From Candidatus Pacearchaeota archaeon (GTDB lineage Archaea; Nanobdellota; Nanobdellia; Pacearchaeales; GW2011-AR1), in NCBI GenBank assembly GCA_050302495.1, contig JBNLBP010000001.1, positions 191,269 to 255,268 on the forward strand: DNA of 64,000 bases, written 5' to 3'. Made by a program: the position numbers and the translations under genes. Below are positions 30,603 through 62,566 of the stretch, one piece after another. Position 1 is the first letter of the stretch; every line of letters begins with the position of its first letter. The notes under the pieces were generated by a model. That model saw only the letters and a program-made list of their open reading frames with translations, was not told the origin of the DNA and did not search any database.

Positions 30603-30667
30603 TTTTTGTGTTTAATTATAGAATAGTTCTAAAATATTATATTATTTTTTGTTTTGTATTTGTTGTG

Positions 30668-31447
30668 ATGTTTGATATCAATAAGTTGTCTCATGATGAA
30701 AGATTTGCTCTACTTTATGGAATAATGTTGGGAGATGGATGTTTGTCAAAATATGTTACAAAACAAAAAAGAACGATATTTGGCATATCAATCGTTTGTA
30801 ATTACTACGATGATATTCCTTTTATTAAAGAATTTGTAGCTCCAATAATAAATTCTTTGCGATCTGGGATGAAACCTTTGAGAATTATTAGAAGGCCTGA
30901 AAAAGGAACTGTTGAATTGTTCTTCTCTGATAAAAGTCTTTTTTGCAAAATTAATTCTTTAGGATTTCCTATTGGTAAGAAAGGAACAAAGATAATTATT
31001 CCTGGAGAATTCCATAGGAGAGATCTTGTCAAATATGTTATTCAAGGAATTTTTGCTACGGATGGTAGTTTGGTTTTAACAAAAAATCCTAACAAATTTT
31101 ATCCAAGATTGGAGGTCCATATGATTGCTCATGATTTGATAAGACAAATTCATGAATTCTTGATCGAGAATGGTTTTAATGGTAACATGTATGAATGCAA
31201 AAGGAATAAGGATGAGAGGGGATTTATTAAAATCTTCAAAAAGTTTCGTGTGCAGTTTAATGGGAAAAAGAATTTGATATTGTTTTATAAAAATATCGGA
31301 TTTGTTAATCCTAAACAACTGAAAAAATTCCAGGCATTTATGAGATATGATCGGAAATATCTTTCTTCTAAAAAGGAACTGTTTAATCGGGTAATTTTGA
31401 AAGATATGGCTGCACTGAGATTCGAACTCAGGACCTCAAGCTCATGA
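30668..31447 (+). CDS. LAGLIDADG homing endonuclease-like protein (double motif)
   Basis: LLYGIMLGDGCL and VIQGIFATDGSL motifs. First ATG at 30668; the ORF-track start at 30608 is GTG. The 3' end overlaps tRNA-Met on the opposite strand by 41 nt. Confidence 0.65.
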   Translation: MFDINKLSHDERFALLYGIMLGDGCLSKYVTKQKRTIFGISIVCNYYDDIPFIKEFVAPIINSLRSGMKPLRIIRRPEKGTVELFFSDKSLFCKINSLGFPIGKKGTKIIIPGEFHRRDLVKYVIQGIFATDGSLVLTKNPNKFYPRLEVHMIAHDLIRQIHEFLIENGFNGNMYECKRNKDERGFIKIFKKFRVQFNGKKNLILFYKNIGFVNPKQLKKFQAFMRYDRKYLSSKKELFNRVILKDMAALRFELRTSSS

Positions 31448-31479
31448 GACTTGCGCTCTACCAACTGAGCTATGCAGCC
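31407..31479 (-). tRNA. tRNA-Met (anticodon CAT; elongator, or Ile2-type)
   Basis: Reverse complement GGCTGCA-TA-GCTC-AGTTGGTA-GAGC-G-CAAGT-CTCATGA-GCTTG-AGGTC-CTGAG-TTCGAAT-CTCAG-TGCAGCC-A. G1-C72 argues against an initiator. Confidence 0.85.
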
Positions 31480-34097: not shown

Positions 34098-36599
34098 ATG
34101 CCAGAGTCTAATAAAATTAATTTTGCAAAAATAGAACAAAAGTGGCAGAAACGTTGGGCTGATAAGAAAGCTTTTGAAGTTAAAGAGCCTCGAACGCCGG
34201 CGGGCACGAAGAAACCTAAATTTTATGTTCTTGAAATGTTTCCTTATCCTTCAGGTAGTGGTTTGCATATGGGACATGCCTGGAATTATTCAATTGGAGA
34301 TGTTTTTGCAAGATTTAAATTAATGCAAGGGTTTAATGTTCTCCATCCTATGGGTTATGATGCTTTAGGGCTTCCTGCAGAGAATGCTGCTATTAAAGAT
34401 GGGACTCATCCTGAAGATTATACTAAGAAATCTATGAAACATTTTATGAAGCAACAGAAGATGCTTGGATTGAGTTATGATTGGTCTAGAATAATTAATA
34501 CTTCAAGTCCGGATTATTATAAGTGGGATCAATGGATTTTCCTTAAGATGTTAGAAAAGGGTTTGGCTTATCAAAAAGAAGCTTCTGTTAATTGGTGCCC
34601 TTCTTGTAAGACTGTTTTGGCAAATGAACAGGCCCAAACTGGTAATTGTGAAAGATGCGGGACAAAAGTGGAATTGAAGACTTTGAGACAGTGGTTTTTT
34701 AAGATTACAGATTACGCTGAAGAACTTTTAGATAAGATTGATGATTTGGATTGGCCTTCGAGAACCAAAGCAATGCAGAAAAATTGGATAGGAAAGAGCT
34801 ATGGTGCTGAGATTGATTTTGAGATAGAGAGTTTTGGAAAGTTTCCAGTATTTACAACAAGACCAGATACTATTTATGGAGTTACATTTATGGTAATTTC
34901 TGCACAGCATCCTAAATTGATGGATATTGTTGCAAACTCTGAGAAAAAGAAAGTTGAAGCGTTTTTGAAGAGAGTTAAAGGTGTTTCAGAGAAGCAGATG
35001 GAGGATATGGAGAAAGAAGGAATTTTTACTGGAAGTTATGCAATTAATCCTGTAACTAATGAGAAAGTTCCAGTTTATGCAGGAAATTTTGTTGTGGCTG
35101 ATTACGGTTCTGGGATGGTGATGGCTGTTCCCGCGCATGATCAAAGGGATTTCGAATTTGCTAAGAAATATGAAATTCCTATAAAAGTTGTAATTGATCC
35201 TGTTGGTCAGGAAATTGAAAAGCCTGAGAAAATGACTCATGCTTATACTGAAAAAGGCAACCTAATTAATTCTGGGGAATTTAGTGGTTTGGAGAATTCT
35301 GATGCAAAGAAAAAGATTGTTGCATTTTTAGAAAGGAAGAAAATTGGGAGAAACAAAGTTCAGTTTAAGTTAAGAGATTGGTTAATTTCTAGGCAGAGAT
35401 ATTGGGGAACTCCGATACCCGTTGTGTATTGCAATGATTGTGGTGTTGTTGCGGTTAAGGAGAAAGATCTTCCAGTTAAGCTTCCTAAAGAGGTTAAATT
35501 TGGGGAAGGAAATCCTTTGTTGACTAATGATAAATGGGTTAAAACAAAATGCCCTAATTGTGGAAATAAAGATTCTAAAAGAGAAACTGATACTATGGAT
35601 ACTTTTGTTAATTCCTCGTGGTATTTTTTGAGATATGCAGATAGCAAAAATGATAAGAAAATTTTTGATCCTAAAAAGGTAGATTATTGGTGTCCGATCG
35701 ATCAATATATTGGGGGGGCTGAACATGCTTGTATGCATCTGATTTATTTCCGATTTTATACTAAATTCTTGAGAGATTTAGGTTTGTTGAAATTTGATGA
35801 ACCTGCAATTAAATTATTTCATCAGGGTATGTTGCACGGCGAGGATGGAGATAAAATGAGTAAATCTAAAGGAAATGTTGTTTTGCCTGAAACTGTTTCT
35901 GAGAAGTATGGAATTGATACAGCAAGAATGTTTTTGATTTCTGTAGCGTCTCCAGATAAAGATATTGATTGGAGTGAGAAAGGTATTGACGGAAGTTTGA
36001 AATTTATAAATAAATTATTTGATTTTTTTTCAAGAGTTGAGTTAACTAAGAAATCAAGCCCTAAGATTGAAAGTAAGTTGAATAAAATAATAAAAGAAGT
36101 TACAAATCAGATTGAGAGTTTCAAATACAATCTTGCAATCATAAAAGTAAGGGAACTGTTTAATACTTTGTTTGATGGAGGGGAAGTTTCAAAAGATGTT
36201 CTTGAGAAGAGTTTGAAATTATTGAGTCCTTTCTGCCCACATGTTTCAGAAGAGCTTTGGGAAAAGATTAAGGGCAAAGGTTTCATTAGTCTCAGTGAGT
36301 GGCCTAAGCCAGAAGATAACAAAATAGATGAACGTTTTGAGAAGCAGGATGAAGCTGTTGAGAAACTAGTTGGAGATATAATTAACATAAATAAAATTGT
36401 TGAAAGTAAGGGAGAATCTAAAGAAAATGTTTATGTCTATGTTCTTCCAAATGAATTAGATTTCTTTTCAGATGAGGAGATTAGTAAGAGGATTGGAAAA
36501 CCAGTTAAGGTTTATGCTGTTAACGATAAAGATAAATATGATCCAAATAATATTTCTAAGAAGGCTAAACCTCATAAGCCAGGTATTTATTTTGAATAA
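34098..36599 (+). CDS. leuS: leucyl-tRNA synthetase (archaeal type)
   Basis: HIGH motif (PYPSGSGLHMGHAWNY), KMSKS motif (KMSKSKGN), CP1 editing-domain signatures, and an archaeal-type C-terminus. Confidence 0.9.
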   Translation: MPESNKINFAKIEQKWQKRWADKKAFEVKEPRTPAGTKKPKFYVLEMFPYPSGSGLHMGHAWNYSIGDVFARFKLMQGFNVLHPMGYDALGLPAENAAIKDGTHPEDYTKKSMKHFMKQQKMLGLSYDWSRIINTSSPDYYKWDQWIFLKMLEKGLAYQKEASVNWCPSCKTVLANEQAQTGNCERCGTKVELKTLRQWFFKITDYAEELLDKIDDLDWPSRTKAMQKNWIGKSYGAEIDFEIESFGKFPVFTTRPDTIYGVTFMVISAQHPKLMDIVANSEKKKVEAFLKRVKGVSEKQMEDMEKEGIFTGSYAINPVTNEKVPVYAGNFVVADYGSGMVMAVPAHDQRDFEFAKKYEIPIKVVIDPVGQEIEKPEKMTHAYTEKGNLINSGEFSGLENSDAKKKIVAFLERKKIGRNKVQFKLRDWLISRQRYWGTPIPVVYCNDCGVVAVKEKDLPVKLPKEVKFGEGNPLLTNDKWVKTKCPNCGNKDSKRETDTMDTFVNSSWYFLRYADSKNDKKIFDPKKVDYWCPIDQYIGGAEHACMHLIYFRFYTKFLRDLGLLKFDEPAIKLFHQGMLHGEDGDKMSKSKGNVVLPETVSEKYGIDTARMFLISVASPDKDIDWSEKGIDGSLKFINKLFDFFSRVELTKKSSPKIESKLNKIIKEVTNQIESFKYNLAIIKVRELFNTLFDGGEVSKDVLEKSLKLLSPFCPHVSEELWEKIKGKGFISLSEWPKPEDNKIDERFEKQDEAVEKLVGDIININKIVESKGESKENVYVYVLPNELDFFSDEEISKRIGKPVKVYAVNDKDKYDPNNISKKAKPHKPGIYFE

Positions 36600-38460: not shown

Positions 38461-40194
38461 TTATTCTAAAATAGCTTTTATTCTTCTTATTCCTGCACTT
38501 GAAGATTCTTCTTTTTTTATTTTGAATTTTCCTAGTTCTTTAGTGTTGTTTACGTGGGGCCCTGTGCAAATCTCTTTTGAATACCAGTCTTTTGAATTAT
38601 TTGGTTTGTGTATTGTGTATACAGATACCATTTCAGGATATTTTGTTCCAAATTCGGATTGTGCTCCAGATTTAACTGCCTCTTCCAAAGGGATTTCTTC
38701 TCTTGTTATTTCTAATCCTGATTGGATTATTTCGTTCATCTTTTCTTCAATTTCAGTTATTTCTTCGGGGGTTATTTTTCGGGGAAAGGTGAAGTCAAAT
38801 CTTAATCTTTCGGGAGTTATGTTTGATCCACGTTGTTTTATGTTTTTATCTTTGAGTACGAACCTTAGGGTTTCATTAAGTAAATGTGTTGCTGTATGGA
38901 GCTTTCTTGTTTGTTCTGAATTATCTGCTAGGCCTGATTTAAACTTCCCTTCTGATGCTGTCCTTGATAAATCCTGGTGTTTTTTGAATTCAATATTGTA
39001 TTCTTCTAAGTCTATTTTTATTCCTTTTTCATTTGTTAGTTCTTCGGTCATTTCAATTGGGAATCCGTAAGACTGGAATAGTAAAAATGCTTCTTTTCCT
39101 GATATTAAATTATCTTTAGACATCTGTTCGAATTTTTTAAGACCTTTTTCGAGTGTTTGTAAAAATTTTTCCTCTTCTTGATCTAATTCTTTTATTATCC
39201 TTTTATGGTTTCTTTTTAATTCTTGGTGATCTGTGTATTCTCTTATTATTATTTTTGCTATTTTTGAGAGGAAGTTCTTTTCTCGGATGTTTAATTTTTT
39301 CCCATACCTTATTGCTCTACGTATTAATCTTCTTAATACGTATCCTTGATCTGCGTTTGAAGGCACTATTTGTTTATCATCTCCCAAAATAAATGTGGCT
39401 GTTCTTATATGATCTGCAATAATCCTCATATACCTTTTTTCTTCTTGGTTTGATTTGGAGTAGTCTTTTTTGGATATCTTTTCTATTTCGCTTATTATTG
39501 GTTTGAACATATCTGTAAGGTAGTTATCATTTAGATTATTTAAAATTGCTAATGTTCTTTCTACCCCCATTCCAGTGTCAACATTTTTTTGTTGTAATTG
39601 TGTGAATTTTCCCTGGGAATTCTTATTGTATTCCATGAATACATTATTCCATATTTCTACCTTGTTTACAAAAATCTCTGTGTCTGGCCCACATGGTCCT
39701 GTTTGCCCTGCAGGGCCCCACCAGTTATCTTTTTTTCCTAAGAACTTGATATTCTTTATCCCGAGTGATTTCCATGTTTTTTCTGATAGAGTGTCCTTTG
39801 GAGCGTCTTTGTCTCCTTTAAAACACGTTACATAAATTTCTTTGGGAGATATGTTTAGTTCTTCTGTAAGGAATTCAAATGAATATTTTATTGACTCCTC
39901 TTTAAAGTAATCTCCTAAAGACCAATTTCCAAGCATCTCAAAGAAAGTATGGTGCGTTGTGTCTCCTACTTCCTCTATGTCTCCTGTACGGATGCATTTC
40001 TGTACAGAAACTAATCTCTTACCTAGAGGGTGTTTTTGGCCTAAAAGAAATGGTACTAAAGGGTGCATTCCTGCTGTAGTAAATAGCACAGTGGGATCAT
40101 TTTCGGGTATTAGGCTTGCGCTAGGAATATGTTGATGTTTTTTCTTTTTGAAGAATTCTATATACTTTTTTATTAATTCTGATCGTGTAACCAT
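38461..40194 (-). CDS. alaS: alanyl-tRNA synthetase, compact bacterial/eukaryal-type
   Basis: N-terminus IPSASLIPENDPTVLFTTAGMHPLVPF and HHTFFEMLGNWSLGDYFK closely follow bacterial/eukaryal AlaRS, not the archaeal-type N-terminus. Editing-domain HTATHLL and CTGPHV (HxxxH/CxxxH) present. Only 577 aa, with no C-Ala domain. Confidence 0.8.
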   Translation of the reverse strand: MVTRSELIKKYIEFFKKKKHQHIPSASLIPENDPTVLFTTAGMHPLVPFLLGQKHPLGKRLVSVQKCIRTGDIEEVGDTTHHTFFEMLGNWSLGDYFKEESIKYSFEFLTEELNISPKEIYVTCFKGDKDAPKDTLSEKTWKSLGIKNIKFLGKKDNWWGPAGQTGPCGPDTEIFVNKVEIWNNVFMEYNKNSQGKFTQLQQKNVDTGMGVERTLAILNNLNDNYLTDMFKPIISEIEKISKKDYSKSNQEEKRYMRIIADHIRTATFILGDDKQIVPSNADQGYVLRRLIRRAIRYGKKLNIREKNFLSKIAKIIIREYTDHQELKRNHKRIIKELDQEEEKFLQTLEKGLKKFEQMSKDNLISGKEAFLLFQSYGFPIEMTEELTNEKGIKIDLEEYNIEFKKHQDLSRTASEGKFKSGLADNSEQTRKLHTATHLLNETLRFVLKDKNIKQRGSNITPERLRFDFTFPRKITPEEITEIEEKMNEIIQSGLEITREEIPLEEAVKSGAQSEFGTKYPEMVSVYTIHKPNNSKDWYSKEICTGPHVNNTKELGKFKIKKEESSSAGIRRIKAILE

Positions 40195-44895: not shown

Positions 44896-44949
44896 GTAAT
44901 TGTTATATTTCTCATAAAAGCTTAAATATTTCTTCTTTATGGATTGTGC

Positions 44950-46056
44950 ATGGCCGAACCTGAAGAGAAAAAAGAGAATGTTGAGGATCTTTTTGTTCCT
45001 AATAAGGATTCAATTAAAATAGATTTTGATCAGAAGGATTTTTTTGATGTTTTGAAGATGGTTGCTCCGGGCACATCTATTCGAGCGGCATTAGATGATT
45101 TACTTAATGCAGAGATGGGAGCTTTGATTGTTATTGATAATGGAAGGGTTTCTTCTGTGGTTGAAAAGGGTTTCAAGATTTATTCTAAGTTTTCCCCTCA
45201 GAAACTTGTTGAGCTTGCTAAAATGGATGGTGCAATTGTTTTATCTGGAGATGTTAAAAAGATCCTTTACGCAAACACTCTTCTTGCTCCTGATCCTCAA
45301 ATTCCAACTCGTGAGACTGGAACTAGGCATAAGGCTGCTGAAAGAACTTCAAAACAAACAGGTTCAATAATTGTTGCAATATCCGAAAGGAAGAGAAAGA
45401 TTACACTTTATTATGGAGATAAAAGGCATGAACTTAGAAAATCTTCAGAGGTTTTAAGAAGAGCTTCAGAAAATATGCAAATACTTGAGAAACAGAGAGA
45501 AAGTCTTAACGAATCTGTTTTAGATCTTAACGTTTTAGAATTGCAGAAGATGGTTACTGTTAACGATGTTTCTAAGGTGATTCAAAATTTTGAAATTCTT
45601 AAGAGAATCTCTTCTGTGATAAAGAAGTATCTTATTGAACTTGGTAAAGAGGGAGTTATTGTTAGTTCTAGATTAAGAAATCTTACTCAGGGATTAGATC
45701 GTGAAGAAGACCTTGTTTTAAGAGATTATTTTGCTTCAAATCATTCTAAAATAGAGCAACTTTTGGGGGAAATGGATCTTGATTCTCTTTTAGAAACTCA
45801 GGATATTTCGGATATACTTTTTGATGAAGTTTACGATATGAAAATTTTTCCTAGGGGATTAAGAATACTTAAGAAGACCAATATCCCTGAACGTTATATT
45901 GATTCTCTTGTTGCTCATTTTGGAACTCTTGGTAAAATTTTATCTGCTCGTTATGAAGATTTGCTTAGAATTTTCCAGAGTGAGGGCATGGTTGACTTCT
46001 TTAAAGAAGAACTTTATAATTTAAGAGAGAAAATTAGTTTTGGAAGAAAACTTTGA
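44950..46056 (+). CDS. DisA-like diadenylate cyclase (DAC domain protein)
   Basis: N-terminal DAC-domain signatures DGAIVL...GTRHKAAERTSKQTGSIIVAISE, followed by an about 200-aa helical C-terminal region. Confidence 0.7.
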   Translation: MAEPEEKKENVEDLFVPNKDSIKIDFDQKDFFDVLKMVAPGTSIRAALDDLLNAEMGALIVIDNGRVSSVVEKGFKIYSKFSPQKLVELAKMDGAIVLSGDVKKILYANTLLAPDPQIPTRETGTRHKAAERTSKQTGSIIVAISERKRKITLYYGDKRHELRKSSEVLRRASENMQILEKQRESLNESVLDLNVLELQKMVTVNDVSKVIQNFEILKRISSVIKKYLIELGKEGVIVSSRLRNLTQGLDREEDLVLRDYFASNHSKIEQLLGEMDLDSLLETQDISDILFDEVYDMKIFPRGLRILKKTNIPERYIDSLVAHFGTLGKILSARYEDLLRIFQSEGMVDFFKEELYNLREKISFGRKL

Positions 46057-49151: not shown

Positions 49152-49188
49152 CCAACAGATTTTTAATTAGTTGGTTCTTTTTCTAGTC

Positions 49189-50487
49189 ATGGTAAAAATT
49201 AATGCTTATCCTGGAGATAGAGTAGAACTGCATTTTATGAAGACTATTTATGAAGGTACTTTGATTGAAAGTCCCGAGTCGGATAAAGGGGTTGTTTTGT
49301 TAAAGTTAGATAATGGGTATAATATTGGTTTTAATAAGAAAGACGTTATGAAGACAAAAGTTCTTAAGAAATCTAAATCTGTTGAAGAAAAAATTGAAAT
49401 TAAGAAAAATCCTTCTAAACCAAATATTGGGATGATAATTACTGGAGGTACAATTGCAGCTAGACTTAATCCTAAGAAAGGAGGGGTTGATTGGTTGGAT
49501 ACTCCAGAGAGTTTATTTAGATTTTATCCGGAAATTTTTGAGAAAGTTAACGTTTCAAAAGTTGAAATTCCTTTTATGAAAGCTTCAGAAGATATGGATT
49601 ATAGGGATTGGCAGAAGATAGCTAGATCTTGTGAGAAATTACTCAATGATTCAAATGTACAGGGTGTTGTAATTACTCATGGGACTGATTTTTTGCATTA
49701 TACTGCTAGTGCTTTAAGTTTTTTCTTTTCTGATAAATTAACTAAACCAATTGTTTTAACATATTCCCAGAGGAGTATTGATCGTGCTTCGAGTGATGCA
49801 AATTTGAATCTGGTTTGTTCTGCAGAGATTGCGGGTTTGAGTGAGATTGCTGAGGTTGTTTTGGTAGGACATAGTAGTTCCAATGATGATTATTGTTATG
49901 TTATGCCTGGTACCAAAGTTAAGAAGATGCATACTTCAAGAAGAGATGCTTTTCATGTTATTAATGATACTCCTATTGCAAAAGTGTTTTCTGATGGGAA
50001 CTTGGAAGTTTTGGATAATTACAATAAAAGAAAAAAAGGGAAGGTTAAATCTGATTTGAAGTTTGAAGATAAAATTGCTCTGGTTAAGATTTATCCTGGG
50101 CAGGATCCGGGAATACTTGACTGGTATGTTAAGAACAAGTATAAAGGAATTATTTTAGAGGTCTCTGGTTTGGCCCATGTTCCAACAATGAGGTCTAGAA
50201 CAGGATGGACTAAAAAATTGAAAGAAATAATTTCTAAGGGGATTGTTGTTTGTGCAACTGCTCAGACAATCAACGGAAGGTTAGACCCTTATGTTTATTC
50301 TAATGGAAGGGAAGTGTTAGATGCGGGAGTTATATTCTTGAAAGATATGTTGTCTGAGACGGCTTTGACTAAATTGGGATGGGTTTTAGGACATGAAGCT
50401 TGGGCTAAAGATAAGAAACTTGTGAAGGAAAAAATGTTAGAAAATATTTCCAGGGAATTTAATGATCGTTTGGAATTTGAGAATTAA
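49189..50487 (+). CDS. gatD: Glu-tRNA(Gln) amidotransferase subunit D
   Basis: Asparaginase-like domain motifs ITGGTIAA and HGTDFLHYTA (threonine-containing HGTDT-like). An N-terminal GatD-specific domain is present. Confidence 0.8.
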   Translation: MVKINAYPGDRVELHFMKTIYEGTLIESPESDKGVVLLKLDNGYNIGFNKKDVMKTKVLKKSKSVEEKIEIKKNPSKPNIGMIITGGTIAARLNPKKGGVDWLDTPESLFRFYPEIFEKVNVSKVEIPFMKASEDMDYRDWQKIARSCEKLLNDSNVQGVVITHGTDFLHYTASALSFFFSDKLTKPIVLTYSQRSIDRASSDANLNLVCSAEIAGLSEIAEVVLVGHSSSNDDYCYVMPGTKVKKMHTSRRDAFHVINDTPIAKVFSDGNLEVLDNYNKRKKGKVKSDLKFEDKIALVKIYPGQDPGILDWYVKNKYKGIILEVSGLAHVPTMRSRTGWTKKLKEIISKGIVVCATAQTINGRLDPYVYSNGREVLDAGVIFLKDMLSETALTKLGWVLGHEAWAKDKKLVKEKMLENISREFNDRLEFEN

Positions 50488-50488
50488 T

Positions 50489-50920
50489 TTATTTTTTTCC
50501 GCCTATTTTTCTATCTATTCTATCTAGAACTTTCTTTAGATCTTGTATTTCTCTTTCAGCTTTTCTATTAACTGCGTAATCGTATTCGGCTCTTTGCCTG
50601 TCTTTTTGAGCTTCCCTATTTTGACTCATAAGTATTATCGGAGCTTGTATTGCCGCTAAGCAAGATAATGCAAGGTTTAGTAATATGAATGGATAGGGGT
50701 CCCATGTTTTTCCGAAAAGTATCCATGAACTATTTACTATTATCCATAGAACTAAAACTACTAGAAATCCGATTATAAATCCCCAACTACCCGCAACTTT
50801 TGTTAACGCATCTGCAGATTTCTCTCCGAATGTTCTTGGGAGTATGTTTGGGTGAGTTATCATTTCTATAACTCCTTTTTTATTTTTCTTTAGAGATATT
50901 CTATCCTCTTTTTCTGCCAT
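50489..50920 (-). CDS. DUF1003 family membrane protein
   Basis: DPYPFILLNLALSCLAAIQAPIILMSQNREAQKDRQRAEYDYAVNRKAEREI matches the DUF1003 consensus. Confidence 0.65.
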   Translation of the reverse strand: MAEKEDRISLKKNKKGVIEMITHPNILPRTFGEKSADALTKVAGSWGFIIGFLVVLVLWIIVNSSWILFGKTWDPYPFILLNLALSCLAAIQAPIILMSQNREAQKDRQRAEYDYAVNRKAEREIQDLKKVLDRIDRKIGGKK

Positions 50921-50999
50921 ATTATTTCTTGTGTAAAATTGGTTATAAATTTATTGTTTTTTTGGGAAGCTTTAAATAATTCTTAAAATTGTTGTTTTT

Positions 51000-52460
51000 A
51001 TGTCAGAATTAATTGATTATGCTAAATTAAAATTTAAGTCTGGTTTAGAGATTCATCAGCAGTTAGATGCTAATGGAAAGAAATTATTTTGTGATTGTCC
51101 TGCTGTTCTTAGGAGTGATGAGCCTGATTCTTCTGTCAAGAGAAGACTTCATGCTGTTGCAGGAGAGAGTGGGGAAGTTGATGTTGCTGCAAAATATCAG
51201 GCTTCTTTAAACAAAACATTTGTTTACAAAGGTCATAAAGAGAACTCTTGTTTAATTGATTTTGATGAAGAACCTCCGCATGAAATTAATCCAGAGGCTT
51301 TGAAAATTGGAGTTCAGATTGCTTTGCTTTTGAATTGTAATATTATTCCTGTTGCTCAAATAATGAGGAAGACTGTTGTTGACGGGTCAAATACTTCTGG
51401 ATTTCAGAGAACCGTTTTAATTGCAAGGGACGGTTATGTTGAAACGTCTTCTGGAAAAGTAGGAATTGACACCGTATGTATCGAAGAAGATTCTGCTAGA
51501 AAAATTAAATCTGAGAAAGAGGAGGTTCATTATACTTTGGACAGATTGGGAATACCTTTAATTGAAATTGCTACATCTCCCGATATTAAAACTCCTGAAC
51601 AGGCTAAGGAAGTTGCTTTGTATATTGGAGAGGTATTAAGAAGTTGCAAAGTTAAGAGAGGTCTTGGAACTATAAGACAGGATGTCAATATTTCTATACG
51701 TGGAGAGAATCGGGTTGAGTTGAAAGGTATGCAGGATATGAAGACTTTTTTGAATACAATTGATAATGAAGTTCTTAGACAGAAAGAATTATCTGATAAA
51801 AAAAATCCTACTCCTGCAGAAGTAAGAAATGCATTGAATGACAAGGATTTTGGGACAGAATTTCTTAGGCCTATGCCTGGAGCAGATAGAATGTATCCTG
51901 AGACTGATTTGCCTTTATTGAAAATTTCTAGAGATTTCATAAACGAATGTAAGAAAGATCTTCCTAAGCTAAGAAGTGATATTGCAGGAGAATTGAAAGA
52001 AAAAGGTTTGAGTGAAGAAATGATTAAACTCTTATTGAAGATGGATAGAATTAATGAATTTAAGGATTTGCTTAATGTTTATGACAAGGTTAATTTTGTT
52101 GCAAAAATGATGTTACTTTTCCCTAAAGAAATTTCTTCAAAAGAAAATAAGAGTTTAGAAGAAGTTGAAGAAATCTTGAGTGATTATTATGTGGAGATTC
52201 TTAAGAAAATAAGAGATAAAGAGCTTCTAGAAAGTGATGTGAAGGACATATTGATCAAATTAACTAAGGGCGAAGAATTTGATAAGGCTGTAAAAGTAGA
52301 AAAGAAAGATACTTCTGAAGTGGAGGAGAAGATATTGAAATTGATAAAAGAAAAACCTGGATTGAATGCTAATGCATATATGGGATTAGTTATGAAAGAG
52401 TTTAAAGGACAGATTAATGGGAAGGAAGTTATGGAGATAGTAAATAAACTTTTAAAGTAG
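51000..52460 (+). CDS. gatE: Glu-tRNA(Gln) amidotransferase subunit E (GatB/GatE family; short form)
   Basis: N-terminal KSGLEIHQQLD..KLFCDC core and C-terminal GatB/YqeY-like helical domain. Called GatE because gatD lies 500 nt upstream. 486 aa, shorter than the typical about 620-aa GatE. Confidence 0.7.
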   Translation: MSELIDYAKLKFKSGLEIHQQLDANGKKLFCDCPAVLRSDEPDSSVKRRLHAVAGESGEVDVAAKYQASLNKTFVYKGHKENSCLIDFDEEPPHEINPEALKIGVQIALLLNCNIIPVAQIMRKTVVDGSNTSGFQRTVLIARDGYVETSSGKVGIDTVCIEEDSARKIKSEKEEVHYTLDRLGIPLIEIATSPDIKTPEQAKEVALYIGEVLRSCKVKRGLGTIRQDVNISIRGENRVELKGMQDMKTFLNTIDNEVLRQKELSDKKNPTPAEVRNALNDKDFGTEFLRPMPGADRMYPETDLPLLKISRDFINECKKDLPKLRSDIAGELKEKGLSEEMIKLLLKMDRINEFKDLLNVYDKVNFVAKMMLLFPKEISSKENKSLEEVEEILSDYYVEILKKIRDKELLESDVKDILIKLTKGEEFDKAVKVEKKDTSEVEEKILKLIKEKPGLNANAYMGLVMKEFKGQINGKEVMEIVNKLLK

Positions 52461-52477
52461 ATTTTGATGGTTTTATT

Positions 52478-53296
52478 ATGAAAATTCTAGTAGTTGGAGA
52501 TCCTCATGGAGATATGAAGAAACTTTCGAAAGTTCCGAATAAAGATATTGATTTAGTTTTATGTACTGGTGATGTTGGCAAAGCAGATTTCGCGAGAAAA
52601 TTTTTCTTTGAAAACATAAAAAGAAAACAACAAGGGCTAGAAGAACTTGAATATGACGGAGAGGCTTTAAAAAAATCTTACAAAGAAATTTGTGATTCTT
52701 CCTTAGATGTTTGGAAATATCTTTCAAAGATTGCACCAACATACTCCATCTTAGGGAATGTTGGAATGAGCATGATTTATGATTCAGAAGTTAAAAAAGA
52801 TGAAAAGAAATACAACATAAAACTACCTTCATTAAGACAAGGAATGAATAAAATTGATAATTTTTATTTCATAAGAAATGTTGTCAGAAATATCAATGGG
52901 CTAAGAATTGGTTTTTTAGAATATTTTAATGATGTCTGTTGGAATAAAGAATTTGGAACAAAAGATAAAAAGAAAATCTCAAAGGCGAAAAATGAAACTG
53001 CAAAAGCAAAAAGGTTTTTGAATAATTTTGGTGGTTTGGATATCCTTGTTTGCCACCAGCCTCCGTTTGGATACCTTGATAAGGTTTCTGGGAAATGGGG
53101 AGCTCCGAAAAATTATGTGGGAAAACATGCTGGAAGTAAAGTTATTTTAAATTATATAAAAAAATACAATCCAAAATATGTTTTTTGTGGACACATTCAT
53201 GAAGGAGAAGGAAAAGCAAAGATTGGGAAATCTGAGATCTACAATTTGGGTGTTGCATCTTATAAAGTTATTGAAATGACAAAATCAAAATCTTAA
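52478..53296 (+). CDS. metallophosphoesterase (calcineurin-like)
   Basis: VVGDPHGD, LCTGDVG, VCHQPPFG, FCGHIHEGEG are the standard MPE metal-binding motifs. Confidence 0.75.
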   Translation: MKILVVGDPHGDMKKLSKVPNKDIDLVLCTGDVGKADFARKFFFENIKRKQQGLEELEYDGEALKKSYKEICDSSLDVWKYLSKIAPTYSILGNVGMSMIYDSEVKKDEKKYNIKLPSLRQGMNKIDNFYFIRNVVRNINGLRIGFLEYFNDVCWNKEFGTKDKKKISKAKNETAKAKRFLNNFGGLDILVCHQPPFGYLDKVSGKWGAPKNYVGKHAGSKVILNYIKKYNPKYVFCGHIHEGEGKAKIGKSEIYNLGVASYKVIEMTKSKS

Positions 53297-53301
53297 TAAA
53301 T
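53283..53301. repeat. 19-nt direct repeat copy 1 (AATCAAAATCTTAATAAAT) at the 3' end of the MPE gene
   Basis: Identical 19-mer recurs at 53663-53681, at the 3' end of the next gene. Both genes therefore end ...KSKS-stop. Confidence 0.6.
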
Positions 53302-53322
53302 GGTTTTTTCTTCTATACACTT

Positions 53323-53676
53323 ATGGACCCAGAGAAAAGAGGAGTGTGGAGAGCGGTTTTGCTTGTGACTTTGCTTTTTTCCTTAATTTTTGTTTCTGCG
53401 AAAGTTTTTCAGAAATTTGAAGGGTGGAGTTTTATTGATGCAATTTATTTTACTGTTATCACCTTTACAACTATTGGCTACGGGGATTTAACCCCTCAGA
53501 CTTCAGTAGGGAAGATTTTTACTATAGCGTTTTCTTTTTTGGGAATAGTTATTGTATTTTATGTTGTTTCTTTAGTGGGGAGTCATGTTTTCAAAAAGAA
53601 GATTGATCAAAAAGTGAACCAAATAAAACAAGCAACCAAAGAACAGGAATCTGTTAAAAAGGAATCAAAATCTTAA
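53323..53676 (+). CDS. minimal two-TM potassium channel
   Basis: Selectivity filter TTIGYGD between two TM helices. 117 aa. Confidence 0.75.
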   Translation: MDPEKRGVWRAVLLVTLLFSLIFVSAKVFQKFEGWSFIDAIYFTVITFTTIGYGDLTPQTSVGKIFTIAFSFLGIVIVFYVVSLVGSHVFKKKIDQKVNQIKQATKEQESVKKESKS

Positions 53677-53681
53677 TAAAT
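53663..53681. repeat. 19-nt direct repeat copy 2
   Basis: Same 19-mer as 53283-53301, covering the last codons and stop of the K-channel gene. Confidence 0.6.
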
Positions 53682-53703
53682 ACTTCTTGATTGGTTAAGA
53701 TGC

Positions 53704-54984
53704 ATGGAACAGACTTATGTTAAAGATTTGAGGACTTCTTCTAAGGAAGTTTTGTTGAAAGGTTGGGTTTATGAGATAAGAAATCTAGCTAAGCTTGGAT
53801 TTGTTCTTTTGCGAGATAGAACTGGAATTGTTCAATGTGTTGCTAAATCTGAAGATATTATGGCTAAGATTTCGGGGTTGTCTTTAGAGAGTGCAGTTGA
53901 AATTACTGGGAAAGTTAAAAGTGCTAAGGTTAAGGCGGAATTTACTAGAGATGATGTTGAAATTGAAGTTACGGGATTAGAAGTTATCTCTATTGCGGGT
54001 AAATTACCTATACATGTTAATGAAAAAAATGAAAAACCTGCTTCATTCCAGAATAGACTTGACTATAGGTTTTTGGATATTAGAAAACCAAAGGTTCAGG
54101 CAGTTTTTGAGATACAATCAACAATAATGAGTGCGTATAGAGAGTTTATGATCAAAGAGGAAGGGGCTTTAGAAGCGGTATTTCCTTCAATAATTGCAGC
54201 TAGTTCTGAAGGCGGTACTGAATTATACAAATTGAAATATTTTGAAAAAGATGCTTATTTATCTCAGAGCTGCCAATTGTATAAACAAATGATTGCTTGT
54301 TCTTTAGAGAAGGTTTTTACAATCTTTACTGTTTGGAGAGCAGAAAAGCATAATACTCCTAGACATTTAAATGAATCAAGGCAGCTGGATTATGAGCAGA
54401 GTTTTGCCGATGAGTTTAAGGTTATGGATGTTTTGGCTAGGTGCGTTCAGTTTGTTATACAGAAAGTTATAGACACTAATAAAAGAGAACTAGATATTTT
54501 GGGTCTGAGTTTGAAGATTCCTAAGACTAAATATCTTACTTTTGAAGAAACAAATCAGTTATTGAGAAAAAACAAGATACATACAGAGAAATTAGATTTG
54601 ACTGGAGATGGAGAGAAGAAATTAGGGGAATTATTTCCAGATACAATTGTTTTTGTTCATGATTGGCCTATAGAGGGAAAACCCTTTTACATAATGCCTA
54701 AGGGAGATGGTTTAAGCGGAGGATTTGATGCTATTTATCAAGGCATGGAAATTTCTTCGGGTGGGCAGAGAGTACATATTCCAGAATTGCTTGAAAAGAG
54801 GTTGAAAGTTAAAGGTTTGAATCCTAAGGACTTTAAGGGTTATATTGATAGCTTTAGATATGGTGCTCCGCCTCATGCTGGATGGGGTCTTGGTTTGGAA
54901 AGATTAACTATGCTAATTTTAGGGCTAGAAAATATAAGAGAGGCAGTTTTGTTCCCTAGAGATAGGACAAGATTAACTCCTTAA
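53704..54984 (+). CDS. aspS: aspartyl-tRNA synthetase (archaeal type)
   Basis: Class-IIb synthetase. Motif-2 region WRAEKHNTPRHLNESRQLDYEQSF (RHLNE...D.E pattern of AspRS) and C-terminal GAPPHAGWGLGLERL...FPRDRTRLTP. Confidence 0.8.
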   Translation: MEQTYVKDLRTSSKEVLLKGWVYEIRNLAKLGFVLLRDRTGIVQCVAKSEDIMAKISGLSLESAVEITGKVKSAKVKAEFTRDDVEIEVTGLEVISIAGKLPIHVNEKNEKPASFQNRLDYRFLDIRKPKVQAVFEIQSTIMSAYREFMIKEEGALEAVFPSIIAASSEGGTELYKLKYFEKDAYLSQSCQLYKQMIACSLEKVFTIFTVWRAEKHNTPRHLNESRQLDYEQSFADEFKVMDVLARCVQFVIQKVIDTNKRELDILGLSLKIPKTKYLTFEETNQLLRKNKIHTEKLDLTGDGEKKLGELFPDTIVFVHDWPIEGKPFYIMPKGDGLSGGFDAIYQGMEISSGGQRVHIPELLEKRLKVKGLNPKDFKGYIDSFRYGAPPHAGWGLGLERLTMLILGLENIREAVLFPRDRTRLTP

Positions 54985-55035
54985 AGATTTTTATTTCCTA
55001 ATAAGATATATAAAAGAAAATGTCTTTTTCAGATA

Positions 55036-56079
55036 ATGTTAACTAAGAAACAAGTTTCTGAAATTAAGGATCACTTGGATAAGGCGCAAAATCCTCTTTT
55101 TCTTTTTGACAACGATCAGGATGGTTTGTGTAGCTATCTTTTGTTGAGAAGATTCTGTGGAAAAGGAAAAGGTTTCCCAATAAAAGGAAATGATTTGTCA
55201 ATAGACTATTTTAGGAAGATTCATGAGCTGGAAGCTGATTATATTTTTGTTTTAGATAAGCCACGAATTTCTCCAGAATTCTTTGAAGAGCTTAAGAAAT
55301 TCAACATTCCTTTGGTTTGGATAGATCACCATGAAAATGATAGGAAAACAATCCCGAAGTTTATTTTTTATTATAATCCTTTATACAATAGAAAGAAGAG
55401 TAACGAGCCTGTTACTGCCTTATGTTATCAGATTTCAGGTAAGAAGGAAGATTTGTGGTTGGGGATGGTAGGTTGTATATCTGACAGGTTTATTCCTGAT
55501 TTTTATAAGAATTTTAAGAAAGAATATCCTGAATTGTGTTTAGATGATAAGAAGCCAAAGGCTTTTGATTTGCTTTACAAGTCTGAGATTGGGAAAGTAG
55601 CTAGAATATTTGGCTTTGGAATAAAAGATAAAACTACTAATGTAATTGGGATGATGAATTTCTTAGTTAAGTCTAGTGGTCCTTACGATGTTCTACAAGA
55701 GAATAATTTTAATAAGGTCTTTTATAAGAGATTTTTAGATATTGAGAAAAAATATTCTTCAATAATGAGTAAGGCTAGGAGTAAAGTTGATGAATCTAAA
55801 GTTTTGTTTTTTGAATATTCAGGAGAGATAAGTATGAGTTCTGAGATATCCAATGGTTTGAGTTATCTGTTTTCAGATAAGGTTATTGTTGTGGTTTATG
55901 CTAAGGGCCCTAGAGTAAACATTTCTGTTAGAGGTTTGAAAGTTAGAGATAAAATTGTCAAGATTATATCCAAGTTAGATAGTGCAACCGGAGGAGGGCA
56001 TGAAAATGCGGTTGGGGGCCAGATAAGGAAAGAGGATTTGGAAAAATTTGAAGAAATGGTTAGAAAGGCCTTTAGCTAA
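55036..56079 (+). CDS. DHH/DHHA1 family phosphoesterase (RecJ-like / nanoRNase-like)
   Basis: Motifs LFDNDQDGLCS (DHH motif I/II-like), WIDHHEN (DHH), and C-terminal TGGGHENAVG (DHHA1 GGGH). Confidence 0.7.
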   Translation: MLTKKQVSEIKDHLDKAQNPLFLFDNDQDGLCSYLLLRRFCGKGKGFPIKGNDLSIDYFRKIHELEADYIFVLDKPRISPEFFEELKKFNIPLVWIDHHENDRKTIPKFIFYYNPLYNRKKSNEPVTALCYQISGKKEDLWLGMVGCISDRFIPDFYKNFKKEYPELCLDDKKPKAFDLLYKSEIGKVARIFGFGIKDKTTNVIGMMNFLVKSSGPYDVLQENNFNKVFYKRFLDIEKKYSSIMSKARSKVDESKVLFFEYSGEISMSSEISNGLSYLFSDKVIVVVYAKGPRVNISVRGLKVRDKIVKIISKLDSATGGGHENAVGGQIRKEDLEKFEEMVRKAFS

Positions 56080-56111
56080 ATTTTTATAAATAGCTTATTG
56101 TTTTTACTCTT

Positions 56112-57413
56112 ATGGTGGATAAGTTTGTTTCAATTCAGGATGCAATGAAGAAAGGTAAAGGAGATCTTTCTATTCGAGGATGGGTTTATAGAGAGCGTGG
56201 AAGTAATAAGATGAAATTTCTTGTTGTAAGGGATTCTAGTAATATAATTCAATGTGTTCTGAAGAAAGAGGATTTTGATAAGCAATGGGATGATATTGAT
56301 AAGTTGAAAGTTGAGAGCTCTGTAGAAATTACTGGAATTATAAAGAAAGATGATCGAGCTCCTACTGGATATGAAGTTTCTGTTAAAAAAATAAATATTG
56401 TTCAAATTGCAGAAGATTTTCCAATAAAGAAAGATCTTAATGAAGAACTTTTGGGAGATAGAAGACATCTTTGGTTGAGAAGTATGAAGATGACTGCTAT
56501 ATTGAAAATTAGAAGTACTGTCTTTGGAGCAATACATGAATATTTTAGAGATAATGGATTTTATGAGTATCAGAGTCCAATTTTCCAGGCAGTTCAGGCA
56601 GAAGGTGGAAGTACTTTGTTTAATGTAGATTATTTTGGAAAGAAAGGAGTATTTTTGGCACAGACTTGGCAGTTATATGCTGAGCCGGCCATTTTTGCTT
56701 TAGAAAAGATTTACACTATTGCTCCTTGTTTTAGGGCAGAAGAAAGCAAGACGTCTAGACATTTGACTGAATTTTGGATGAATGAAATGGAAATGGCTTG
56801 GGCTTCATTTAAGGATATACAGGACCATGGAGAAGGTTTGTTGAAACATATTGTTAAGAAAGTTCTTGAAAAGAATAAACCTGAATTGAAAATATTGGAG
56901 AGGGACGTTAAGAAATTAGAACCTACGGTTAAGAAGAAATTTCCAAGAATGACCTATGATGAAGCTTTGAAGATACTTAAGGATAAATGTAAAATGAAGG
57001 TTCCTTGGGGTAAAGATCTTAGAACTATTGAAGAGGATAAAATAAGCAAGTTATATGACACTCCAATAATTATTACAGAGTATCCCAAGGCTGTTAAGGC
57101 CTTTTACATGAAAGAGACTGAAGGCAACCCCAAAGTTGTTAATGGATGCGATTTTATTGCTCCTGATGGCTATGGTGAGATAATTGGAGGTAGTGAGAGG
57201 GAAGCTGACCCTGAGAAAATAAAGGAAAAATTGTCAGAAATGGGGGAGAATCCTGAACAGTATAGTTTTTATTTGGATACTAGAAGATATGGCAGTGTAC
57301 CTCATGGAGGTTTTGGTATGGGTGTTGAGAGAGTTATATCTTGGATATGTGGTTTAACGACGATAAAAGATGCTATCCCTTTCCCTCGAACTATGACTAG
57401 AGTTAGTCCTTAG
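56112..57413 (+). CDS. asnS: asparaginyl-tRNA synthetase
   Basis: Class-IIb synthetase with FRAEESKTSRHLTEFWMNEMEMAW (the EFWM pattern typical of AsnRS rather than AspRS) and C-terminal GGFGMGVERV...FPRTMTRVSP. Confidence 0.8.
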   Translation: MVDKFVSIQDAMKKGKGDLSIRGWVYRERGSNKMKFLVVRDSSNIIQCVLKKEDFDKQWDDIDKLKVESSVEITGIIKKDDRAPTGYEVSVKKINIVQIAEDFPIKKDLNEELLGDRRHLWLRSMKMTAILKIRSTVFGAIHEYFRDNGFYEYQSPIFQAVQAEGGSTLFNVDYFGKKGVFLAQTWQLYAEPAIFALEKIYTIAPCFRAEESKTSRHLTEFWMNEMEMAWASFKDIQDHGEGLLKHIVKKVLEKNKPELKILERDVKKLEPTVKKKFPRMTYDEALKILKDKCKMKVPWGKDLRTIEEDKISKLYDTPIIITEYPKAVKAFYMKETEGNPKVVNGCDFIAPDGYGEIIGGSEREADPEKIKEKLSEMGENPEQYSFYLDTRRYGSVPHGGFGMGVERVISWICGLTTIKDAIPFPRTMTRVSP

Positions 57414-57694: not shown

Positions 57695-58360
57695 ATGAAT
57701 TTTGGAAATATTGAAATAAAGTGGCTTGGTCACTCGGGATTTTTGATTAAAAATTCAAAGGTAATTTATATTGATCCTTATAACATAAAGGAAGGTTTGG
57801 ATAAGGCAGACATAATTTTGATAACCCATAGCCATTATGACCATTGTAGTTTTGCGGACTTGGAGAAGATTGTTAAGGAAGGCACTAAAATTATTATCAC
57901 TGCGGATTGTCAGAGTAAAATTGTTAGGTTTAAAGTTCCAATAAAAATCGAAATTATTGAGCCTATGCAGGAAATGGACCTTGGAGGAATTTCTATCTCA
58001 ACTATTCCCTCTTATAATACTGATAAACATTTTCACCCTAAAGATGAAGGTTGGGTAGGTTATGTTATTAAGATGAATAATGTTATTATTTATCATTCTG
58101 GAGATAGTGATCTTGTACCTGAGATGCAAAGACTTACTGGCCATAAACAACCTGGAAAGGAGTTTATTGCTTTACTTCCTATTGGAGGAAGGTTTACTAT
58201 GAACGTAGAGGAGGCCGCTGAGGCCGCTAAATTGATTAAGCCTAGTGTTGCTATTCCTATGCATTGGGGGAGCATCATTGGCTCTGAGGATGATGCTAAA
58301 GAGTTTAAGGAACTTTGTGAAGAGAATAATATAAAGTGTGAGATTTTGAGGAAAGAATGA
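57695..58360 (+). CDS. metallo-beta-lactamase fold hydrolase
   Basis: ILITHSHYDHC (HxHxDH) and downstream His/Asp ligands. ATG at 57695; the ORF-track start is TTG. Confidence 0.75.
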   Translation: MNFGNIEIKWLGHSGFLIKNSKVIYIDPYNIKEGLDKADIILITHSHYDHCSFADLEKIVKEGTKIIITADCQSKIVRFKVPIKIEIIEPMQEMDLGGISISTIPSYNTDKHFHPKDEGWVGYVIKMNNVIIYHSGDSDLVPEMQRLTGHKQPGKEFIALLPIGGRFTMNVEEAAEAAKLIKPSVAIPMHWGSIIGSEDDAKEFKELCEENNIKCEILRKE

Positions 58361-59388
58361 AATATCTCTTAGGCTCTCCTGACGACTTTCATAATTTTGT
58401 TAATTCCATTAAAGAAGGAGATAAAGTTGGGGTTGTTACCCACACAGATGTTGATGGTTTGGTTTCAGGATTGTTTTTACAAAAGATTTTGGAATCCCGA
58501 AATATTGAAATTAATTTTATTGAATTTTTGAATTATGGCGCCGGTGTCTTGGAAGAATTTTATTTTAGAAGAGATTATGATAAATTATTCTTTACTGATT
58601 GGAAGGTTGATGAGGATTTAGATATATTGAATCTTTTGAGGGAAAAGGGAGAAGTCTTGGTCTTTGATCATCACCCTTTGAATGAAGAACTGAAAGATAG
58701 AAAATTGATTATAAAAACTGAAGGACAGTATTGTTCTGCTCATGCCCTTTTTGATTTAGCTAAGGATTATTTTGATATTGAAGAATTGTCTTGGTTGGTC
58801 TGTTCGGCAGTTATTACGGATTATACCTATAATAACGAGGAGGTGTGGAGTTTTTTGAAGAGTTTTTATCCGGAGGTAAATAAAGATGACATTTATGAGT
58901 CTATTCCTGGAAGGAATGGATTGACAATTGATAATGCTCTAATTTATTACAAGCCGGATTTTAAGAAAGTTTATGACTTGGTTCTTAAAAAGGACTTAAT
59001 TTCTTTAGAATCCGTTAGTGGAGAGGTTGAAGAAGCTGCACTTGATGCAGAAGTTACTTACCTTTCGGAGGCAGAATATTTCCCTGAAAAGAACCTTTAT
59101 TTTGGTTATATTAACCCTAAGTTTGGTATGCTGTCTAAAGTAATCTCTAAGATTTCTCATGAACACCCCGATGAGGTTTTTATTATGGCTGCAGATTCAT
59201 CTAGGGAGGGATTTGTGAAGCTTTCTGGGAGGGTTCAGTCTGTGAATGTCGATTTGGGTGTTTTGTTAAAGAAATGTGTTGAAGGTTTTGAAGATGCATC
59301 TGCGGGGGGGCATCCAAAAGCCTCTGCAGCTAGTTTTCCCAAGAAATATTTGGAAGAGTTTAAGGAGAGATTTCTTAAAGAATTGTAA
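58357..59388 (+). CDS. DHH/DHHA1 family phosphoesterase (second copy)
   Basis: VVTHTDVDGLVSG (motif I/II), VFDHHPL (DHH), and C-terminal SAGGHPKASAAS (DHHA1). ATGA overlap with the upstream MBL gene. Confidence 0.7.
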   Translation: MKYLLGSPDDFHNFVNSIKEGDKVGVVTHTDVDGLVSGLFLQKILESRNIEINFIEFLNYGAGVLEEFYFRRDYDKLFFTDWKVDEDLDILNLLREKGEVLVFDHHPLNEELKDRKLIIKTEGQYCSAHALFDLAKDYFDIEELSWLVCSAVITDYTYNNEEVWSFLKSFYPEVNKDDIYESIPGRNGLTIDNALIYYKPDFKKVYDLVLKKDLISLESVSGEVEEAALDAEVTYLSEAEYFPEKNLYFGYINPKFGMLSKVISKISHEHPDEVFIMAADSSREGFVKLSGRVQSVNVDLGVLLKKCVEGFEDASAGGHPKASAASFPKKYLEEFKERFLKEL

Positions 59389-62455: not shown

Positions 62456-62478
62456 AGAAAATTATCTTCAGATTTAAT

Positions 62479-62566
62479 GCCCTGGTAGCTCAGTTGGTTA
62501 GAGCGAACGGCTGTTATTTCCCAAACAGATACCGTTAGGTCGCAGGTTCAAGTCCTGCCTGGGGCG
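62479..62566 (+). tRNA. tRNA-Asn (anticodon GTT) with a 14-nt intron at canonical position 37/38
   Basis: GCCCTGG-TA-GCTC-AGTTGGTTA-GAGC-G-AACGG-CTGTTA[TTTCCCAAACAGAT]A-CCGTT-AGGTC-GCAGG-TTCAAGT-CCTGC-CTGGGGC-G. Intron at 62517-62530; its AACAG pairs with loop CTGTT, giving a BHB-like helix. Confidence 0.8.

Follow-up and report, generated by a model that had tools for sequence, protein, structure and literature searches.

A small-AlaRS in a Pacearchaeota genome: a shortened, bacterial-type alanyl-tRNA synthetase and its relation to known AlaRS forms

Alanyl-tRNA synthetase (AlaRS) is commonly described as having a single prototype architecture in all of life, in which the C-terminal C-Ala domain joins aminoacylation and editing on one tRNA. 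A 2023 preprint (Valencia-Sanchez et al., bioRxiv 10.1101/2023.05.29.542759) gave the name "small-AlaRS" to a class that has a catalytic, a tRNA-recognition (ATL) and an editing domain but neither the cradle-loop barrel nor C-Ala, and reported it in bacteria of the Candidate Phyla Radiation (CPR) and in Thermoplasmatota, DPANN and Asgard archaea. According to the same preprint, small-AlaRS sequences have bacteria-specific insertions, the tree favours horizontal gene transfer from bacteria to archaea, and in the supplement the archaeal members cluster with the bacterial ones. A literature search did not find the term in other papers. The mini-AlaRS of Tupanvirus, which is without C-Ala and the editing domain, charges tRNA-Ala as well as an acceptor-stem microhelix, complements yeast and is still specific for G3:U70 although it lacks the conserved Asn and Asp (PMC10036535), while the AlaRS of Nanoarchaeum equitans is of archaeal type and split into alpha and beta subunits (PMC11392972). 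Here, a gene for an AlaRS of 577 amino acids is analysed, which lies in a 64-kb stretch of contig JBNLBP010000001.1 from a Candidatus Pacearchaeota assembly (GCA_050302495.1); this whole stretch is referred to as the window.

The gene is real and intact and encodes a shortened, bacterial-type AlaRS, which is a member of the already catalogued small-AlaRS family (NF002436/PRK01584) and differs from it in nothing essential. The preferred reading, to which a probability of about 0.85 is given, is that this bacterial-type enzyme of three modules was anciently acquired and is most probably the housekeeping AlaRS of its host. The open reading frame (ORF), alaS, occupies positions 38461-40194, as originally predicted; it lies on the minus strand and runs from an ATG to a TAA at 38461-38463. 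Following the protein from its N-terminus, the class II catalytic (aminoacylation) domain covers about residues 1-245 (39460-40194, boundary approximate) and the helical tRNA-recognition domain about residues 246-408 (38971-39459, from the E. coli alignment and the structure model). The latter contains N280 (39355-39357) and Q374 (39073-39075), which align with E. coli N303 and D400. Model confidence and alignment place a flexible linker at residues 409-426 (38917-38970), where canonical AlaRS has a beta-barrel. The editing core, delimited by a Pfam match, the E. coli alignment and a fold match, takes up residues 427-577 (38464-38916) and carries the HxxxH motif as HTATH (residues 433-437, 38884-38898), Q454 (38833-38835), the CxxxH motif as CTGPH (residues 543-547, 38554-38568) and R570 (38485-38487), the counterpart of E. 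coli R693. Both editing motifs had been noticed in the original prediction, as had the N-terminal motifs ENDPTVLFTTAGMHPLVPF and HHTFFEMLGNWSLGDYFK, which are found at residues 31-49 and 81-98.

Profile comparisons place the protein firmly. NF002436 (PRK01584), a curated NCBIfam equivalog for alanine--tRNA ligase with a 595-position profile, was matched with 781.2 bits against a cutoff of 529, and the match extends from end to end (residues 4-577 on profile positions 3-593). TIGR00344, the profile of canonical alaS, also scored above its cutoff (561 against 457 bits), but the best stretch is confined to profile positions 3-432 of 847, and the protein does not match this profile at full length through barrel, editing domain and C-Ala. 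The archaeal profile TIGR03683 reached 228.7 bits, far below its cutoff of 744.7. The AlaXM profile NF040865 reached 71.9 bits against a cutoff of 300, and the editing module is here fused to a synthetase. Sequence matches in the PDB follow the same division: the catalytic fragments of the Aquifex aeolicus, human cytoplasmic and E. coli enzymes scored 314, 291 and 280 bits, whereas the archaeal AlaRS chains scored 110-121 bits. The claim that the enzyme is of bacterial/eukaryal and not of archaeal type thus holds. The exact protein is already present in NCBI (P0001).

Pfam recognises tRNA-synt_2c over residues 7-437 and tRNA_SAD (Thr/Ala-RS second additional domain) over residues 523-572; the Pfam scan returned no C-terminal match to C-Ala/DHHA1, in agreement with the predicted lack of C-Ala. 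Aligned with E. coli AlaS, the window protein corresponds in two blocks, residues 5-414 to E. coli 6-440 (37% identity) and residues of about 431-575 to E. coli 561-698 (32% identity, 100 bits). Two parts of the E. coli protein have no counterpart in the alignment. One is the coiled coil with C-Ala (E. coli 699-876), so that the window AlaRS has no elbow-binding or dimerisation module. The other is the beta-barrel or cradle-loop barrel of about 115 residues (E. coli 441-555), which in canonical AlaRS lies between the tRNA-recognition and editing domains; this loss had been overlooked in the original prediction. The combination of catalytic, tRNA-recognition and editing domains without barrel and C-Ala is the architecture described for small-AlaRS, and the intact editing core separates the protein from viral mini-AlaRS, in which editing domain and C-Ala are both absent. 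In the window protein, as in the two relatives closest to it (P0002, P0003), about 18 residues of a variable loop in the catalytic domain are also absent; the deletion lies at about 39655-39670 (residues of about 176-179), and the loop is present in most family members. The missing loop accounts for the length of 577 residues compared to the family consensus of about 595.

An AlphaFold2 model was built on 48 homologues and has a mean predicted local distance difference test (pLDDT) score of 82.4. It shows helices at residues 250-414, a disordered linker at 409-423 (pLDDT below 50) and a compact alpha/beta editing core at 427-577. In a Foldseek comparison with the PDB, the N-terminal part gave template modelling (TM) scores of 0.80-0.85 with the catalytic fragments of bacterial and human AlaRS. 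The editing module superposes on all of AlaX-S (TM 0.81) and on only half of AlaX-M (TM 0.53). By sequence, it scored 100 bits with the editing core of E. coli AlaRS and 26 bits with AlaX-S. As it is nearer in sequence to the E. coli AlaRS core than to AlaX-S, it has the appearance of an AlaRS editing domain that was trimmed, not of an AlaX that was captured.

When one genome per GTDB species was scanned, more than 570 relatives of the window AlaRS were returned, and the best 80 of these, all full-length and 50-77% identical, were used for most comparisons. On the archaeal side, these 80 belong to Woese- and Pacearchaeota, Aenigmatarchaeota, Methanomassiliicoccaceae and Thermoplasmatales; on the bacterial side, to Patescibacteria (Uhrbacteria, Magasanikbacteria), many Clostridia (with complete Christensenellaceae chromosomes among them), Spirochaetota, Anaerolineae and further groups. 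The occurrence in Clostridia and Spirochaetota was found here and is not listed in the preprint (bioRxiv 10.1101/2023.05.29.542759). In all 80 relatives, from both domains of life, the C-terminal end falls within a few residues of that of the window protein. The compact architecture is therefore a family trait and the reduction predates the copy of this lineage, which does not agree with the earlier suggestion of a reduced, lineage-specific form.

In NCBI, more than 100 proteins of 570-605 amino acids from Pacearchaeota or Nanoarchaeota share 65-84% identity with the window AlaRS and are annotated as alanine--tRNA ligase. A search of 1.84 billion protein representatives gave a list headed by short forms (565-660 amino acids) down to about 41% identity; they make up most of the best 150 representatives, and canonical AlaRS of 850-900 amino acids first show up at about 480 bits. 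A homologue search seeded with a spirochaete sequence found the short form to be pervasive in metagenome-assembled genomes (MAGs) of Spirochaetota. Borrelia and Treponema presumably carry an AlaRS of about 594 amino acids as well, in which case cultured organisms would have the short form as their sole AlaRS; the literature and homologue searches returned no named cultured species. Two longer relatives were also encountered. The first (P0127, 781 amino acids) belongs to a cluster named by the Joint Genome Institute (JGI) as non-canonical purine nucleoside triphosphate pyrophosphatase (RdgB/HAM1 family), and this name points to a naturally occurring fusion between small-AlaRS and a HAM1-type enzyme. 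The second (P0121, 776 amino acids) has about 200 extra residues.

A neighbour-joining (NJ) tree was constructed from the catalytic and tRNA-recognition region of short forms of known taxonomy, 28 canonical-length representatives, the E. coli, A. aeolicus and human enzymes, and the archaeal-type AlaRS of Archaeoglobus fulgidus and Pyrococcus horikoshii as outgroups. PDB entries served to check the outgroup and human sequences; that of A. aeolicus was copied from a PDB alignment. Archaeal-type AlaRS split off with 100/100 bootstrap support and all short forms fell on the bacterial/eukaryal side. The window protein groups with the short forms on that side, and not within archaeal AlaRS. In the core region it is 55-61% identical to the short forms of CPR, Clostridia and Thermoplasmatota, 39-52% to canonical bacterial/eukaryal AlaRS and 27-29% to the archaeal-type enzymes of A. 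fulgidus and P. horikoshii. Horizontal acquisition, one of the explanations offered originally, is supported by the clustering with short AlaRS of CPR, Clostridia and Spirochaetota at 55-61% identity, and the preprint concurs.

Residue conservation was counted in an alignment with the 80 species-level relatives, and in a second set of 48 close (DPANN) homologues. In the catalytic domain, none of the 80 relatives deviates at R69, W159, V185, D206 or G208. The same is true for the editing residues H433, H437, Q454, C543, H547 and R570, bar one X at the R570 position; they correspond to E. coli H564, H568, Q584, C666, H670 and R693. The tRNA-recognition domain is less uniform at the two positions which in E. 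coli read G3:U70, N303 and D400, the latter contacting G3 in the minor groove. Asn is found at the N303 position in 74 of the 80 relatives and Lys in four Methanomassiliicoccaceae. At the D400 position Asp is found in 53/80 and Gln in 18/80; Asp is kept in Clostridia, Spirochaetota and most other members, and Ser is found in Uhrbacteria. Q374 of the window protein is invariant in the 48 close homologues, and Gln at this position follows the DPANN clade of Woese-, Pace- and Aenigmatarchaeota (loci L001-L006, L022, L064 and L070 are among those with Gln). This Gln in the DPANN clade is one small new detail of the present analysis.

Genes for tRNA-Ala were looked for near small-AlaRS genes. In a Thermoplasmatales locus with Arg at the N303 position (L063) the tRNA-Ala adjoining the small-AlaRS gene carries G3:U70, as does, in one of the Methanomassiliicoccaceae with Lys at that position (L067), the tRNA-Ala located about 4 kb away from the small-AlaRS gene. 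Neither the window nor the 11 DPANN loci scanned contain a tRNA-Ala gene. Small-AlaRS genes also occur in MAGs labelled as uncultured Gammaproteobacteria (L007, L009, L014, L024, L058, L076), five of which have the DPANN-type Gln, with Ser in L014. L007, L009 and L014, the three that were entered in the tree, cluster there with short forms of DPANN and CPR, and the Gammaproteobacteria labels of these MAGs are probably wrong.

The surroundings of the gene give information on its host and age. Close AlaRS homologues are labelled Candidatus Pacearchaeota, Nanoarchaeota or Woesearchaeota, from which the host can be assigned to the DPANN archaea of this group. The window encodes several archaeal markers, namely GatD, GatE, a family-I ProRS, an archaeal-type non-discriminating AspRS, deoxyhypusine synthase and TFE-alpha, and in addition a true AsnRS and an alpha2-type GlyRS. 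The gene order around alaS is DisA, deoxyhypusine synthase, a SpoIIM-like protein, a rhomboid protein, TFE-alpha, two small proteins, AlaRS, a 367-aa protein and LeuRS, and synteny of this neighbourhood is seen in eight loci from Pace-, Woese- and Nanoarchaeota (L001-L006, L015, L070). The G+C content of alaS (0.330) is as low as that of the window (0.327). The conserved synteny and native G+C content point to an acquisition of the AlaRS gene that is old and lineage-wide, and not specific to this genome.

In the original prediction, the bacterial-type AlaRS was set against an otherwise archaeal translation apparatus. The host is indeed archaeal by its GatD/GatE, ProRS, AspRS, deoxyhypusine synthase and TFE-alpha, but the contrast does not hold for LeuRS. 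The LeuRS gene next to alaS (34098-36599, plus strand) is of bacterial type, with 934 bits for TIGR00396 (leuS_bact) against 249 bits for leuS_arch, which weakens the picture of AlaRS as an isolated bacterial element. The window also encodes MnmA, a tRNA 2-thiouridine synthase of bacterial type (61279-62403, minus strand, 387 bits), and a DisA diadenylate cyclase (44944-46056, plus strand, 335 bits). With LeuRS, MnmA and AlaRS all of bacterial type, the translation apparatus of this genome is better described as a mosaic of bacterial and archaeal components than as an archaeal one with a single exception. The convergent arrangement of AlaRS and LeuRS is kept in the eight Pace-, Woese- and Nanoarchaeota loci and is absent from the three CPR loci checked. 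A transfer of both genes as one block is not supported by this distribution, as the adjacency was seen in DPANN loci only.

From these observations the following mode of action can be proposed. The catalytic domain would activate alanine with ATP to Ala-AMP and pass the alanine to tRNA-Ala. As there is no C-Ala to hold the tRNA elbow, tRNA-Ala would be chosen through the acceptor stem alone, in the G3:U70 region, by the helical domain with N280 and Q374. The enzyme is probably monomeric, since C-Ala and coiled coil mediate dimerisation in canonical prokaryotic AlaRS; their role in the oligomerisation of these enzymes is described in the literature (PMC4649089). An editing core of AlaX-S size, tethered by the 18-residue flexible linker in place of the beta-barrel, would hydrolyse Ser- and Gly-tRNA-Ala in cis at a putative zinc site formed by H433, H437, C543 and H547 together with Q454, and R570 may re-read G3:U70 during editing. 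As to its history, the compact AlaRS would have its origin on the bacterial side of the AlaRS tree and would then have passed between bacteria and archaea. Long ago, it would have been taken up by an ancestor of the Pace- and Woesearchaeota, with vertical inheritance in a conserved neighbourhood since then.

Residue conservation predicts all three activities, alanine activation, charging of tRNA-Ala and editing of Ser- and Gly-tRNA-Ala, and the gene most probably serves as the housekeeping AlaRS. Replacement of the native synthetase is plausible, and the gene is likely to be the sole AlaRS copy in the genome, given the reduced genomes and the near-ubiquity of the family in this lineage. Some points weigh against this reading. 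The inspected DNA is a 64-kb part of a contig of at least 268 kb; within this window, six-frame searches with the window AlaRS, its editing domain, E. coli AlaRS and the N-terminal regions of two archaeal-type AlaRS found no second AlaRS or AlaX. Resolution within the bacterial-type clade is weak in the NJ tree (46/100 for monophyly of the short forms, 29/100 for the Pace/Woesearchaeota clade), so that no donor lineage or number of transfers is claimed. The Gln in place of the G3-reading Asp could mean an altered recognition of tRNA-Ala. Finally, a literature search did not find a biochemical characterisation of any small-AlaRS, hence its aminoacylation and editing activities, its oligomeric state and the way it binds tRNA are predictions.

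The extent of the inspected DNA leaves some room for the explanation that a canonical archaeal-type AlaRS is encoded elsewhere in the genome and that the short copy is an accessory paralogue with a specialised job, such as condition-dependent charging, a role chiefly in editing, or the charging of a substrate other than tRNA. Fusions of the short form like that to the RdgB/HAM1-named protein hint at some functional diversification within the family. Nevertheless, all catalytic and editing residues are invariant, the family is curated by NCBI as an alanine--tRNA ligase equivalog, and it is near-ubiquitous in Pace-, Woese- and Nanoarchaeota assemblies at 65-84% identity. DPANN genomes are strongly reduced, and a redundant synthetase gene of 1.7 kb would be unexpected in them on general grounds. 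An accessory role is thus considered unlikely.

The probability is smaller still that the small form is the ancestral AlaRS, kept by vertical descent without horizontal transfer, to which beta-barrel and C-Ala were added later. That the catalytic domain and that for tRNA recognition form a functional core can be argued from the Tupanvirus enzyme (PMC10036535) and is argued in the preprint (bioRxiv 10.1101/2023.05.29.542759), and in the NJ tree both the monophyly of the short forms and their nesting among canonical bacterial sequences (16/100) are weak. The short forms are, however, on the bacterial/eukaryal side of the 100/100 split from archaeal-type AlaRS. Moreover, the identity of 55-61% between archaeal and bacterial short forms is far too high for vertical descent since the divergence of archaea and bacteria; the comparison value for canonical bacterial and archaeal-type AlaRS against the archaeal comparators is about 28%. 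The patchy distribution within phyla and the bacteria-specific insertions of small-AlaRS (bioRxiv 10.1101/2023.05.29.542759) also speak against it. An artefact, be it a canonical alaS cut short or frameshifted, or a contig of contaminating bacterial DNA in an archaeal bin, was considered because the protein is about 300 amino acids shorter than canonical AlaRS and of bacterial type, and no supporting evidence was found. The stop position shared by 80/80 relatives and the absence of AlaRS-like sequence after the stop in every frame led to the rejection of truncation and pseudogene formation, and the archaeal flanking genes (TFE-alpha, deoxyhypusine synthase, GatD/E), the synteny in eight DPANN loci and the native G+C content to that of contamination; the chance of an artefact is regarded as negligible.

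Some further features of the window were noted. GatD, GatE, the non-discriminating-type AspRS and the true AsnRS are clustered at 49171-57413, and two DHH/DHHA1 proteins (55036-56079 and 58357-59388) are located beside this cluster. DHHA1 is the Pfam family which also covers C-Ala. A trans-acting C-Ala was considered and dropped, as the protein at 55036-56079 is not significantly similar to E. coli AlaS (best E value 2.2) and each of the two is a complete DHH-family protein. A giant ORF of 2691 amino acids (11350-19425, plus strand) has C-terminal ankyrin repeats (residues of about 2580-2686) as its only recognisable feature, and the 617-aa ORF preceding it (9500-11353) gave no family matches. 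A tRNA-Thr(UGU) at 62478-62567 (plus strand), called with 90 nt and possibly holding an intron, overlaps the start of the ORF 62548-63609, and a tRNA-Met at 31407-31479 (minus strand) overlaps the end of the ORF 30608-31447. The boundaries of both ORFs are probably over-called.

As a discovery, the finding is minor, since the protein is in NCBI, is correctly named by the equivalog and belongs to a class already described with the same evolutionary interpretation. Its remaining value lies in the small-AlaRS family as a subject for biochemical study, in the Gln at the G3-reading position of the DPANN clade, and in the corrected picture of a genome with a mosaic of bacterial and archaeal translation components (AlaRS, LeuRS, MnmA). 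A large family that spans both domains of life, and apparently provides the AlaRS of many genomes from DPANN, CPR, Clostridia, Spirochaetota and Thermoplasmatota, lacks C-Ala as well as the barrel, and the characterisation of one small-AlaRS would test how essential both are. It may be speculated, as a tentative proposal that is less probable than not to hold in all its parts, that in Pace-, Woese- and Aenigmatarchaeota small-AlaRS is the sole AlaRS, monomeric, dependent on the acceptor stem only, with a Gln-modified reading of tRNA-Ala and a loosely tethered AlaX-S-like editor. If this were true, these archaea would offer a natural minimal model of AlaRS identity and proofreading without the domains thought to couple them.

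Among known systems, the small-AlaRS of the preprint is the closest, with the same three modules, an end-to-end profile match, the same taxonomic setting and the same inferred bacterial origin. Compared to its consensus, the window protein differs in the deletion of the loop of about 18 residues, and its DPANN clade in the Gln at E. coli D400. The canonical bacterial enzymes, E. coli AlaS (876 amino acids) and A. aeolicus AlaRS, share the editing core at 32% identity with the same zinc and Gln/Arg residues, but possess the barrel (441-555) and the coiled coil with C-Ala (699-876) that the window protein is without, as well as Asp instead of Gln at position 400. The Tupanvirus mini-AlaRS resembles the window AlaRS in being naturally C-Ala-less and of bacterial/eukaryal type, and it shows that a C-Ala-less enzyme can work. 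It lacks the editing domain, however, and is related to the AlaRS of its amoebal host, whereas the window AlaRS comes from another clade, a prokaryotic one, and has its editing core intact. AlaX-S (P. horikoshii PH0574; PDB 1v4p, 1v7o, 1wnu) has the minimal editing-core fold and the HxxxH/CxxxH motifs in common with window residues 427-577, but is free-standing and edits in trans, while the window module is fused in cis to the synthetase. The archaeal-type AlaRS of A. fulgidus (3WQY) and P. horikoshii (2ZZE) belong to the same enzyme family, with the same reaction and homologous tRNA-recognition helices; the window protein is without their archaeal N-terminal extension, including the Cys-rich CPKCG motif, their barrel and their C-Ala. 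The split AlaRS of N. equitans is likewise non-canonical within DPANN, and the window AlaRS represents instead a bacterial-type, single-chain short form.

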